Of a stretch of DNA of 64,000 nt, positions 2,273-61,030 are shown in pieces. A model generated the notes under the pieces. It had not been told where the DNA came from and made no database searches. It saw only the letters and a program-made list of their open reading frames with translations. Location: IMG/VR virus record IMGVR_UViG_2721755646_000011. One strand, given 5' to 3'. Numbering within the stretch: the first letter of the stretch is position 1; each line of letters begins with the position of its first letter. This DNA is from a virus (Duplodnaviria > Heunggongvirae > Uroviricota > Caudoviricetes). Both the position numbers and the translations under genes were made by a program.

Positions 2273-2542
2273 CTATTTCATTCCGCCAATATTTTCCCAC
2301 CTCCCGTCAGCACGCAGAATTTGCAGCGGTCTTACCACGCACTGTATCTGCTTTTTATCCGCATCCAGTATCACCACCTGCGTGATTACCCTGTCCTGCT
2401 CCGGGATAATGCCATTCTCATCGGACTCCAGAATGTCTGCCGGTCCCAGTCGCAGCTGTGCTGTAAGTAACTCCCCGTTTTCACGGTCATCATGCTTTCC
2501 GCAACCGCACAGACGCTGCATAAGTTTTTTTAGTACGTTCAT
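2273..2542 (-). CDS. conserved small protein downstream of tail fibre (89 aa)
   Basis: Track ORF 2273-2674 overlaps fibre gene; ATG at 2540-2542 lies 1 nt after fibre stop with AGGAGA RBS, giving MNVLKKLMQRLCGCGK...; duplicated in prophage 2. Confidence 0.5.
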   Translation of the reverse strand: MNVLKKLMQRLCGCGKHDDRENGELLTAQLRLGPADILESDENGIIPEQDRVITQVVILDADKKQIQCVVRPLQILRADGRWENIGGMK

Positions 2543-2543
2543 G

Positions 2544-3863
2544 TCATTCTCCTGTTCTGCCTGTATCACTGCCCACTTCATCCAGCCCCTTGACATCCTG
2601 CCACGGCCCGTCACCAAACCTGACCTGCAAATGCTGAAAAAAACCCTGAACCCGTGTGGCATCTTTGGGGTCAAGAAAGGTCAGTCCGGTGATGAGTGCG
2701 CCATCTGTATCCGGGAACCAGCCATGGCTGTTTGTCTCAATAATGTTTCCCGGCCCCAGACGAAAACGGATTTGTGTCTCCCCCGGGTCGCCCTTCGGTC
2801 CCTGAGGTCCGGTTGCCCCCACCGGGCCAGCCGCACCTGTTTCTCCTTTCGGTCCCTGTGGGCCTGCCGGGCCTGCCGCACCGGTATCTCCCTTTGGACC
2901 CTGTGGACCTGCATTTCCCGTCAGACCGGTCTCTCCCCGCTCTCCCCTGTCACCTTTCGGCCCCTGCGGGCCTGCCGGACCAGCATCACCTGCCGGTCCC
3001 CGTTCGCCGGTTGCCCCGACAGGGCCGGTGTCACCACGCTCTCCTTTATCTCCCTTCGGCCCCTGAGGACCCGCGGGCCCCTGTTCCCCCTTTGGCCCGG
3101 GAGGTCCCACCACGGTGGGGATTCGGTTTACGGCCTCTTCCGCCGCTATCCTGCTTTGTTCCGCTGACTGTGCGCTTTCTGCTGACTCCCGGGCTTTTTC
3201 TGTTGCGGTCGTTGCATCCCTGGCTGCATTACCGGCTGCACTTTCTGCCGTCTTTCTTGACAATTCAGCTTCTGCTGCACTTTGTGATGACTCACTGGCT
3301 TTTTGAGCGGCCGCAGAAGCCGAGGACGAGGACGCATCCTCTGACTGCTTTGCAGCGGCTGCACTTTCTGCCGCCTGCCGGGCTGACTCCGATGCATCCC
3401 CTGCTGAAGTGTCAGCATTTGCAGCGCTCTCTTCTGCCTGACTGGCTGATATGCCGGCATTCCTCGCGGACGTCTCTGCTTCTCCGGCATTCTTCTTCGC
3501 CTCCTCTGCGTGACGCGCTGCTTCTTCCACCATCAGTTCAAAACGACGCAGTGCCTCCGGACGGACGTCATCCTCCGACATGGCACCGAGAAAATCATTC
3601 AGCGTCCCCGGTTGAGAATCTTCATACACGGTGATGGTCCCGGCATGTGACGGCGGGAATCCTTCCACCAACAGAATGACGCTGTACTGACCGTACTCAA
3701 CGTCCATGCTGTAACGCCCTGCCTCATCCGGATTTTCAGAGGCCACCGTGTTCACCACCACCGTGCTGCTGGTCCGTCTGGCTTTCAGTTGAATGGTGCA
3801 GTTCTCTACCGGTTTTCCTGTGCCGTCTTTCAGTACACCTGAAATCTTTACTGCCATATTCAC
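2544..3863 (-). CDS. tail fibre protein with Ala/Ser-rich stalk and collagen-like Gly-X-Y repeats
   Basis: 439-aa ORF; about 36 consecutive GXY triplets ([26 protein letters not shown]...); located after lom as in lambdoid side tail fibre modules. Confidence 0.85.
2781..3107 (-). repeat. collagen-like GXY triplet-repeat coding region inside tail fibre gene
   Basis: Residues ~253-361 of the fibre protein are uninterrupted Gly-X-Y; 9-nt periodicity visible in DNA. Confidence 0.8.
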
Positions 3864-3921
3864 CCCACAAAAAAGCCCGCCTGAACCGGCGGGCTGTCAT
3901 AACACTGTGTTACCTGGCTAA

Positions 3922-4521
3922 TCAGAACTTATAACCGACACCCACGATGAAACCGTCAGTGCGCCAGTCGCCACTGCCGGAGCCTTCATAAGCAATATCA
4001 ATGGCCACGGATTCGGTCGGGTTAAACTGCACGCCAGCCCCCCACGCCAGAGACGTGTTGCTGTGGCGACCGTCATCACTTCCGGTCAGCACATCATGCG
4101 TTTTCCCCTTGTTGTCAGTTACGCGGAGATAATCCCCGGAAAAAGTCGACACACGGCTGTAAGCCACGCCCGCCATCGCATACGCACTGAACCATTCATT
4201 CACGCGCACAGAGGGCCCCGCCATCACGCTGAACCAGCGGTTACGAACGGAATCTTCATGCCAGCGGGTATCGCTGTAATGGGTCAGCTGGCGATTCTTG
4301 TCTCCTGCATAGCTGAATGACGTCACCATCCCCAGTGTGTCCGTAAACTCATAACGGTATTTCACGTTAATCCCGTTCAGATCATCGCTGCCGGGAACGT
4401 TCGTCGAGACATGAAGATACCCCGCGCTCAGCGTGGACTGATGTTCAGACGCCCATGCAGGCGCACCGGATACGGCCAGACAAATGGCTGCGGACAAAAT
4501 GGCGGCATAAAGTTTACGCAT
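3922..4521 (-). CDS. lom: Lom-like outer membrane protein (Ail/Lom/OmpX family)
   Basis: 199-aa ORF with signal peptide, beta-barrel pattern ending ...GVGYKF; sits between J and tail fibre as in lambda. Confidence 0.85.
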   Translation of the reverse strand: MRKLYAAILSAAICLAVSGAPAWASEHQSTLSAGYLHVSTNVPGSDDLNGINVKYRYEFTDTLGMVTSFSYAGDKNRQLTHYSDTRWHEDSVRNRWFSVMAGPSVRVNEWFSAYAMAGVAYSRVSTFSGDYLRVTDNKGKTHDVLTGSDDGRHSNTSLAWGAGVQFNPTESVAIDIAYEGSGSGDWRTDGFIVGVGYKF

Positions 4522-4587
4522 AATTACCTCTCGCTTTTCTGCAATAAAAAAGGCGTCATTTCTGACGCCCGTTCTGGGTTATAAAAT

Positions 4588-59289: not shown

Positions 59290-59404
59290 TCCATTAAAAA
59301 TGAGCTTGATCTAATCTCCGAATTTAACGGCATTATAAAACTCCCTATTTTAATTTAAACTCCAGACTTAAATAGCTTTAACAAACATCTGCCTTACATG
59401 ACAA

Positions 59405-59431
59405 CAAAAACCGGAGCCGGACTCCGGTTTT
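59405..59431 (-). terminator. intrinsic terminator hairpin downstream of prophage 2 small ORF
   Basis: Same CCGGAGCCGGACTCCGG hairpin with T-run as at 2232-2259. Confidence 0.55.
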
Positions 59432-59445
59432 GTGAAGCTGTCGGG

Positions 59446-59715
59446 TTACTTCATCCCGCCAATATTTTCCCACGTCCCGTCAGCACGCAGGATTTGCAGC
59501 GGTCTTACCACGCACTGTATCTGCTTTTTATCCGCATCCAGTATCACCACCTGCGTGATTACCCTGTCCTGCTCCGGAATAATACCATTCTCATCGGACT
59601 CCAGGATGTCTGCCGGCCCCAGACGCAGTTGTGCTGTAAGTAACTCCCCGTCTTCACGGTCATCATGCTTTCCGTGCCCGCACAGACGCTGCATAAGTTT
59701 TTTTAGTATGTTCAT
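59446..59715 (-). CDS. conserved small protein downstream of tail fibre (prophage 2 copy)
   Basis: MNILKKLMQRLCGHGK...; ATG 1 nt after fibre stop; near-identical to 2273-2542 product. Confidence 0.5.
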   Translation of the reverse strand: MNILKKLMQRLCGHGKHDDREDGELLTAQLRLGPADILESDENGIIPEQDRVITQVVILDADKKQIQCVVRPLQILRADGTWENIGGMK

Positions 59716-59716
59716 G

Positions 59717-61030
59717 TCATTCTCCTGTTCTGCCTGTATCACTGCCCACTTCATCAAGCCCCTTAACATCCTGCCACGGCCCGTCACCAAACCTGACCTG
59801 CAAATGCTGAAAAAAACCCTGAACCCGTGTGGTATCTTTGGGGGCAAGAAAGGTCAGTCCGGTGATGAGCGCACCATCTGTACCCGGGAACCAGCCATGG
59901 CTGTTTGTCTCAATAATGCTCGCCGGCCCCAGACGAAAACGGATTTGTGTCTCCCCCGGGTCGCCCTTCGGTCCCTGAGGTCCGGTTGCCCCCACCGGGC
60001 CAGCCGCACCTGTTTCTCCTTTCGGTCCCTGTGGGCCTGCCGGGCCTGCTGCCCCGGTGTCTCCCTTTGGACCCTGTGGACCTGCATTTCCCGTCAGACC
60101 GGTCTCTCCCCGCTCTCCCCTGTCACCTTTCGGCCCCTGCGGGCCTGCCGGACCAGCATCACCTGCCGGTCCCCGTTCGCCGGTTGCCCCTGCCGGGCCG
60201 GTGTCTCCACGCTCTCCTTTATCTCCCTTCGGCCCCTGAGGACCCGCGGGCCCCGGTTCCCCCTTTGGCCCGGGAGGCCCCACCACGGTGGGGATTCGGT
60301 TTACGGCTTCTTCCGCCGCTATCCTGCTTTGTTCCGCTGACTGTGCGCTTTCTGCTGACTCCCGGGCTTTTTCTGCTGCGGTCGTTGCATCCCTGGCTGC
60401 ATTACCGGCTGCACTTTCTGCCGTCTTTTTTGACAACTCAGCATCTGTTGCACTTTGTAATGACTCACTGGCTTTTTGAGCGGCCGCAGAGGCCGAGGAC
60501 GAGGACGCCTCCTCTGACTGCTTTGCAGCGGCTGCACTTTCTGCCGCCTGCCGGGCTGACTCCGATGCATCCCCTGCTGAAGTGTCAGCATTTGCAGCGT
60601 TCTCTTCTGCCTGACTGGCTGATATGCCGGCATTCCTCGCGGACGTCTCCGCCTCTCCGGCATTCTTCTTCGCCTCCTCAGCGTGACGCGCCGCTTCTTC
60701 CACCATCAGTTCAAAACGACGCAGTGCCTCCGGCCGGACGTCATCCTCCGACATGGCACCGAGAAAATCATTCAGCGTACCGGGTTGAGAATCTTCATAC
60801 ACGGTGATGGTCCCGGCATGTGACGGAGGAAATCCCTCCACCAACAGAATGACGCTGTACTGACCGTACTCAACATCCATGCTGTAACGTCCGGCTTCAT
60901 CCGGATTTTCAGAGGCCACCGTGTTCACCACCACCGTGCTGCTGGTTCGTCTGGCCTTCAGCACAATGGTGCAGTTCTGTACTGGTTTTCCTGTGCCATC
61001 TTTAAGCACGCCAGAAATTTTTACTGTCAT
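59717..61030 (-). CDS. tail fibre protein with collagen-like repeats (prophage 2 copy)
   Basis: 437 aa, near-identical to 2544-3863 product including the GXY tract (59954-60280). Confidence 0.85.

Follow-up and report, generated by a model that had tools for sequence, protein, structure and literature searches.

Two lambda-like prophages in tandem at ompW of Escherichia coli O157 carry copies of a common side-tail-fibre cassette

Two copies of a distal tail module in the prophage region

We analysed a 64,000-nucleotide stretch of DNA (IMG/VR record IMGVR_UViG_2721755646_000011; hereafter the window), which derives from an E. coli O157 chromosome with two lambda-like prophages integrated one behind the other at the ompW 3' end, and in which a tail-fibre module occurs twice. 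Both copies are encoded on the minus strand, where J is followed by lom, the fibre gene, a small open reading frame (ORF) and a terminator. In prophage 1 (copy A) these are the 1132-residue tail-tip attachment protein J (4588..7986; Pfam GpJ domains and RefSeq), the Ail/Lom outer-membrane β-barrel gene lom (3922..4521; PF06316), a side tail fibre of 437 residues (2544..3857; PF08400, PF01391 and PF06820, with a match to PDB 9e7m), an ORF of 89 residues that encodes a stand-alone Phage_fiber_C domain (2273..2542; PF06820, PHROG 576 and RefSeq) and a hairpin at 2222..2272 with its core at 2232-2258, placed by RNA folding and by alignment to the second copy. The equivalent features of prophage 2 (copy B) are J (61849..64000, the C-terminal ∼716 codons of a gene that continues beyond the window end), lom (61182..61781; Pfam and annotation), the 437-residue fibre (59717..61030), the 89-residue ORF (59446..59715) and the folded hairpin (59396..59445).

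A self-BLAST of the window aligns 2205-3880 with 59379-61057 as direct repeats of 1.68 kb on the same strand, at 94.7% identity over 1681 aligned columns (82 mismatches and 4 gap openings), with copy B offset from copy A by 57,173 bases (57.2 kb). When the copies were aligned with MAFFT, every 100-nt bin from 2276 to 3775 showed 94-100% identity, followed by a sharp drop in the lom-fibre spacer and then by patchy identity of 50-99% through lom and J up to the window end. At the protein level the fibres share 420 of 437 residues and the small-ORF products 85 of 89 (both 96%), with Lom at 84% identity and the C-terminal 716 residues of J at 72%, in a mosaic pattern. The ratio of nonsynonymous to synonymous divergence between the copies is 0.13-0.15 for the fibre and the small ORF (0.13 for the latter), so both copies of these genes look intact and under purifying selection, and judged by their sequences both modules look functional.

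The repeat is thus real and far beyond chance. An earlier note, made from the sequence alone, had described it as a near-identical module of fibre, small ORF and terminator, in direct orientation about 57 kb apart and flanked by homologous but more divergent lom and J genes. The arrangement and the greater divergence of the flanks are borne out by both alignments, and the identity lies above the ∼90% that the note had set as its own threshold, although a value of this size is better described as very similar than as near-identical. The placement of the module at 2232-3863 and 59405-61030 was right as to location but needs adjusting at its edges, as RefSeq starts fibre A at an ATG at 3857 rather than at the GTG at 3863, and homology begins ∼27 nt before those left-hand positions.

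Domain structure of the fibre and the small ORF

The fibre is made up of a Stf-type collar domain, an Ala/Ser/Glu-rich segment, a collagen-like Gly-X-Y shaft of ∼110 residues and a 64-residue Phage_fiber_C tip, according to its Pfam matches. Residues 1-133 match PF08400 (phage_tail_N) at 6e-69 and residues 1-93 match the collar domain of Ur-lambda gpStf (PDB 9e7m, E = 2e-51), which places the gene among Stf-type side fibres. In the Ur-lambda tail tip, twelve collar domains form a collar that anchors four trimeric side fibres (PMC12617516). Like the stf-tfa locus of that phage, the locus here follows J and lom and encodes a homologous collar domain, and the fibre is predicted to share the trimeric architecture. 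It differs in having the Gly-X-Y shaft in place of a long coiled coil, in its 64-residue Phage_fiber_C tip and in the nature of the downstream gene.

That downstream gene, the 89-residue ORF, matches PF06820 at 1e-36 and PHROG 576 ("tail fiber protein"), is named "phage tail fiber C-terminal domain-containing protein" in RefSeq, and its product is 34% identical to the C-terminal domain of the fibre itself. A Tfa-type assembly chaperone was not recognised downstream of the fibre, the matches of the ORF being solely to PF06820 and PHROG 576, and a search for NCBIfam families found none for the small ORF or for the integrase. By these matches the ORF product is a stand-alone paralogue of the fibre tip in the position that tfa takes in lambda, not a Tfa chaperone. 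If the product itself acts as a tip, each cassette would encode two tips. The small ORF is kept at every cargo junction, and one could imagine both that its product binds receptors as an alternative or exchangeable tip, or else helps to template the fibre trimer, and that small ORF and terminator together form a homologous joint at which co-resident prophages swap effector cargo; we regard this combined proposal as unlikely.

The small ORF is followed in copy A by a hairpin of -22.1 kcal/mol (z -5.2) and in copy B by one of -21.2 kcal/mol (z -3.9), each succeeded by a run of U, and a truncated third copy of the module, described below, also ends with a hairpin and a U run. A consensus terminator scan picked up hairpins in the lom-fibre gap and after J but missed the one that follows the small ORF. 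In our reading it was missed because A and U tracts lengthen the stem, which consumes the U tail.

Tandem arrangement of the prophages at ompW

Prophage 1 occupies the window as far as its integrase gene (43105..44235, plus strand; RefSeq annotation of the identical sequence in FDAARGOS_293, 180-PT54 and HB6), with the excisionase at 42879-43127 (RefSeq, identical sequence). Beyond the integrase lies a 121-bp copy of the ompW 3' end (44279..44399), which aligns with both the left and the right ompW attachment-site (att) copies of 180-PT54. As this att copy has phage-type sequence on either side, it has the structure expected of the internal junction between two phages integrated in tandem at one att, and homology to a genome that carries prophage 1 only stops at 44399. 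The complete order is visible in ATCC 43889 and FDAARGOS_293, both with the outer att copies: yciE, an ompW fragment, the prophage 1 cargo, prophage 1, its integrase, a second ompW fragment, the effector locus, prophage 2, its integrase and intact ompW. The tandem of lambdoid prophages that the earlier note had proposed is therefore seen in full in these two genomes. The two integrases are nearly identical, the excisionases are identical, and both integrase genes directly adjoin ompW or its att copy. Identity is 99.9% between prophage 1 and the prophage of 180-PT54, and likewise 99.9% between the region 39001-64000 and FDAARGOS_293; none of the genomes listed matched the window over its entire length.

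Between the internal att copy and the fibre terminator of prophage 2 lies an effector cargo locus (EEL; 44400..59378), annotated from the RefSeq entry for the FDAARGOS_293 region, which is 99.6-99.9% identical. It holds a 21-bp attB-in-PP_1 site (44707-44727, an exact match) and three nleG-family genes, one of them a pseudogene, together with espM1, nleF, nleH1-2, nleA and insertion sequence (IS) elements. Their order is an NleG-like gene (45535-46149), espM1 (47692-48282), nleG (48466-49113), ISEc8 (50421-52754), nleF (53720-54289), nleH1-2 (54355-55266), nleA (57093-58418) and the NleG-like pseudogene (58758-59332). This "effector island", as the earlier note had called it, would indeed be lost whole in a crossover between the fibre copies, but it is not a separate island: it is the cargo locus of prophage 2, situated within the att boundaries of that prophage.

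Prophage 2 is a PPompW phage of the Sp9/CP-933P type, with its effector cargo just downstream of the fibre terminator. Nakamura et al. (2021, PMC8112680) described PPompW prophages whose effector locus is exchangeable (Sp9 in O157 Sakai, CP-933P), along with their 121-bp att and the occurrence of PPompWs in tandem in O157:H7. The prophages here share with them integration at the ompW 3' end, the 121-bp ompW-derived att, a second PPompW in tandem, an effector locus beyond the fibre with ∼seven effector genes (the nleG family, espM1, nleF, nleH1-2 and nleA) and the 21-bp attB-in-PP_1 beside the att; nothing essential differs. In the published example an nleG variant and another 21-bp site are found on the second prophage of the tandem. 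Here prophage 1 has a gene for an OspG/NleH-like kinase together with an IS1, and a single 21-bp site occurs in the window.

Each prophage is also found at this site without the other. A synthetic yciE-att-EEL junction, which represents prophage 2 alone, is present in 382 genomes at ≥80% coverage, with the top matches at 100% identity, and prophage 1 alone is found at ompW in 180-PT54, HB6, RM13322 and 2014C-3061. For the tandem, matches to the 14.5-kb junction segment 32000-46500 extend to 46500 in 25 of the 30 complete genomes listed, and hence in at least 25 genomes, and in 8 of those listed the segment is 99.9-100% identical over its full length.

Distribution of the cassette

The module is present in 4854 of 5426 complete E. 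coli genomes, at up to 18 places per genome and at 13 in one O157 strain, and its identity at the best place is mostly 90-99%. It also occurs in 378 phage records, 141 of which cover at least 80% of it; most belong to phages that convert to Shiga toxin (Stx) types Stx1a, Stx2a or Stx2c, so that the cassette is found in bona fide phage genomes. Copy A is 98.3-98.5% identical to cassettes of O121 and O103 strains and of free Stx phage records, which is closer than it is to copy B. The likeness of the two copies therefore reflects conservation and exchange across the phage pool rather than local duplication or homogenisation, and the module is not special to this pair of prophages but is a standard side-tail-fibre cassette of the lambdoid phages of enterohaemorrhagic E. 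coli (EHEC).

Homology and exchange between the prophages

The fibre module is neither the longest nor the most identical block shared by the two prophages. Prophage 1 and the prophage 2 of ATCC 43889 are collinear over at least 16 homologous blocks in direct orientation, including 6.0 kb of tail genes at 95.6% (7076-13069) and 2.6 kb at 96.9% that spans exo, xis, int and att. When the portion of prophage 2 beyond the window was represented by FDAARGOS_293, the two prophages had 102 exact direct matches of 40 bp or more in common, the longest being of 708 and 437 bp in xis-int and of 686 bp at 32045-32730. The longest perfect stretches of the fibre pair, 131 and 127 bp, rank about 19th to 20th; they are exact repeats of more than 100 bp in adjacent prophages of the same orientation and so belong among the potentially recombinogenic repeats.

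Exchange of tail-tip modules is observed directly. In the prophage 1 of HB6 the segment equivalent to window 4064-6059 (lom-J) is 99-100% identical to copy B and has A-type sequence on both flanks, so that a patch of ∼2 kb has been replaced; the tract (∼23760-25900 of locus extract L004) corresponds to window 61240-63230. In ATCC 43889 a run of B alleles is present in the prophage 1 fibre at 2877-3135. On a larger scale, comparison of the prophage 2 loci of FDAARGOS_293 and ATCC 43889 (locus extracts L003 37000-48998 and L008 against L007 7664-24113) showed that the whole head/tail module differs, with a breakpoint in J near 63792, whereas the early region and the effector locus are common to both. 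The head is HK97-like in FDAARGOS_293, with a tail module that also differs, where ATCC 43889 has E/D/Nu1-A genes like those of lambda; the window is of the FDAARGOS_293 type. Tail-tip module swapping is thus real.

Deletions were sought with a synthetic junction in which the prophage 1 cargo and fibre A up to 3000 were joined to fibre B from 60174, lom B and J B. The best match, at 98.0% in two pieces, was HB6, which is ruled out as a deletion product since it is a prophage-1-only strain with the converted Lom-J patch. The earlier note had envisaged that a crossover between the copies would delete prophage 1 and the whole effector island or would swap fibre modules. The geometry of this deletion was right, in that it would run from the lom gene of prophage 1 onward and take in the effector locus, and swaps of modules are seen, but the search for deletion variants with a junction inside the repeat, which the note had suggested looking for, returned none among the 5426 complete genomes.

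Interpretation of the repeat

Taken together, these data make it very probable that the repeat is the standard lambdoid EHEC distal tail cassette, present once in each of two O157 prophages in tandem at ompW. Each prophage carries a single cassette composed of a Stf-type fibre, a small tip-domain paralogue and a terminator. Prophage 1, with its near-identical integrase and excisionase, sits in the left att of prophage 2, which accounts for the distance of 57 kb between the two cassettes and for their common orientation. On this reading the two are alike because the cassette is conserved at 95-99% across the phage pool and exchanged by homologous recombination, rather than as duplicates of each other. 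For crossover between the prophages, whether mediated by RecA or by a phage recombinase, the fibre pair is one substrate among many. A single crossover within it would join the prophage 1 cargo to prophage 2, with loss of prophage 1 from lom to int, of the att junction and of the whole effector locus, and a patch-type exchange would swap tail-tip modules. The repeat, its gene content, the tandem att structure, the spread of the cassette through the phage pool and the natural tail-tip swaps are shown by the data; from these we infer that crossover within this particular pair takes place at a measurable rate.

Some of the data weigh against this account. The window does not reach the left att or most of prophage 2, and their arrangement is taken from near-identical complete genomes. 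The fibre-junction deletion product was found in 0 of the 5426 complete genomes, with no full-length near-identical match in a single piece. Perfect stretches as short as 131 and 127 bp, together with 5.3% divergence, disfavour RecA crossover in the fibre pair, and the donors of the converted tracts are not assignable to the neighbouring prophage because an O157 genome holds ∼13 similar cassettes.

The last point bears also on a rival explanation, in which the neighbouring prophages keep converting each other's genes and this is the main reason why the copies stay alike (concerted evolution from proximity). The run of B-type alleles in the ATCC 43889 fibre and the 2-kb Lom-J tract of HB6 that is identical to copy B speak for it. 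Against it, HB6 lacks a prophage 2 at ompW, the donors cannot be identified, the 82 substitutions are scattered over the whole module, and the identity between A and B falls below that of A to the O121, O103 and free Stx phage cassettes. We therefore think it very unlikely that local conversion is the main cause of the likeness.

Still less probable is that one prophage was duplicated in tandem and that its copies then diverged. The nearly identical integrases and excisionases and the many homologous blocks in the same order would fit such an origin, but identity between the prophages is strongly mosaic, in blocks of ∼69-97% separated by unmatched stretches, the cargo, immunity and early segments differ, and each prophage occurs alone at the same att in other strains. 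The earlier note had likewise taken the phages to be mosaic rather than simple duplicates, a view that the patchwork identity and the differing cargo uphold. That the second copy is an assembly artefact, from a duplicated or mis-joined contig, is scarcely credible: beyond the general difficulty of assembling O157 prophages nothing speaks for it, 82 substitutions and 4 indels separate the copies, their flanks are different, and the junctions, among them that of 32000-46500, are reproduced in many independent complete genomes.

The standard-cassette interpretation agrees with what is known of O157 prophage clusters, in which a 47.7-kb deletion between the adjacent prophages Phi804-9 and Phi804-10 via an 822-bp direct repeat, as well as Sp11/Sp12 deletions, have been reported (Stanton et al. 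2020, PMC7430833). As in those pairs, adjacent lambdoid prophages of the same orientation share many direct repeats, and a crossover would remove about one prophage length. The published junction is an exact repeat of 822 bp, whereas perfect identity in the fibre pair extends to at most 131 bp and the corresponding deletion variant was not found in the 5426 genomes. The interpretation that the earlier note had offered is supported. The repeat is an ordinary and already published feature of EHEC O157 prophage clusters; as a substrate for recombination between the two prophages it is not unique and is surpassed by others, and in itself it adds no new principle. Inter-prophage crossover is a recognised driver of genome variation in EHEC O157 and of difficulties in outbreak typing. 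Here a crossover could remove a virulence block or re-sort the host-range modules of the phages, since seven genes for type III effectors, nleA, nleF and nleH1-2 among them, lie between two recombining prophages.

A truncated third copy in the effector locus

A third, truncated copy of the module lies within the effector locus (55278..55444, minus strand), at 89-92% identity to A and B and supported by its fold and annotation. It retains the terminator and the final 72 nt of the small ORF and is joined to an integrase pseudogene (55438-56432, plus strand) that lacks ∼70 N-terminal codons; by tblastn the pseudogene is 36% identical to the prophage 1 integrase from residue 71. The genes nleH1-2 and nleF are directly downstream of the remnant terminator. 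Direct repeats of 142 nt (52897-53038 and 56576-56717, 77% identical) bracket the stretch 52897-56717 and could be old att sites. The stretch looks like a prophage scar inside the effector locus, and its content suggests that nleH1-2 and nleF came as the cargo of a third phage that was later almost wholly deleted. Just beyond its own terminator, copy A still resembles the flank of the third copy upstream of nleH1-2.

Other features of prophage 1

The cargo of prophage 1 includes a gene for a 196-residue OspG/NleH-like kinase (549-1139, minus strand), whose match to the NCBIfam NleH model is well under the cutoff, and an IS1 (1315-2012) lies between this gene and the fibre terminator. In the lysis region (23209-24467), and nowhere else, prophage 1 departs from the 180-PT54 prophage, with 88-95% identity and a 260-nt indel; this is another local module replacement. 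Rfam matches place several small RNAs in prophage 1, namely AgvB (anti-GcvB; 27463-27524, plus), STnc100 (27526-27718, minus), a sok antitoxin beside hokD (32775-32949, minus) and DicF (39680-39731, plus). A weak tRNA-like Rfam match at 27804-27863 is annotated as tRNA-Met in RefSeq relatives; ARAGORN called no tRNA, there or elsewhere. In strain TR01 (NZ_CP033605.1) the end of prophage 1 that holds the cargo and the fibre is found at 2.93 Mb on the plus strand, and the prophage 1 early region with the effector locus at 1.74 Mb on the minus strand, coordinates that by themselves suggest a large inversion with a breakpoint inside prophage 1.

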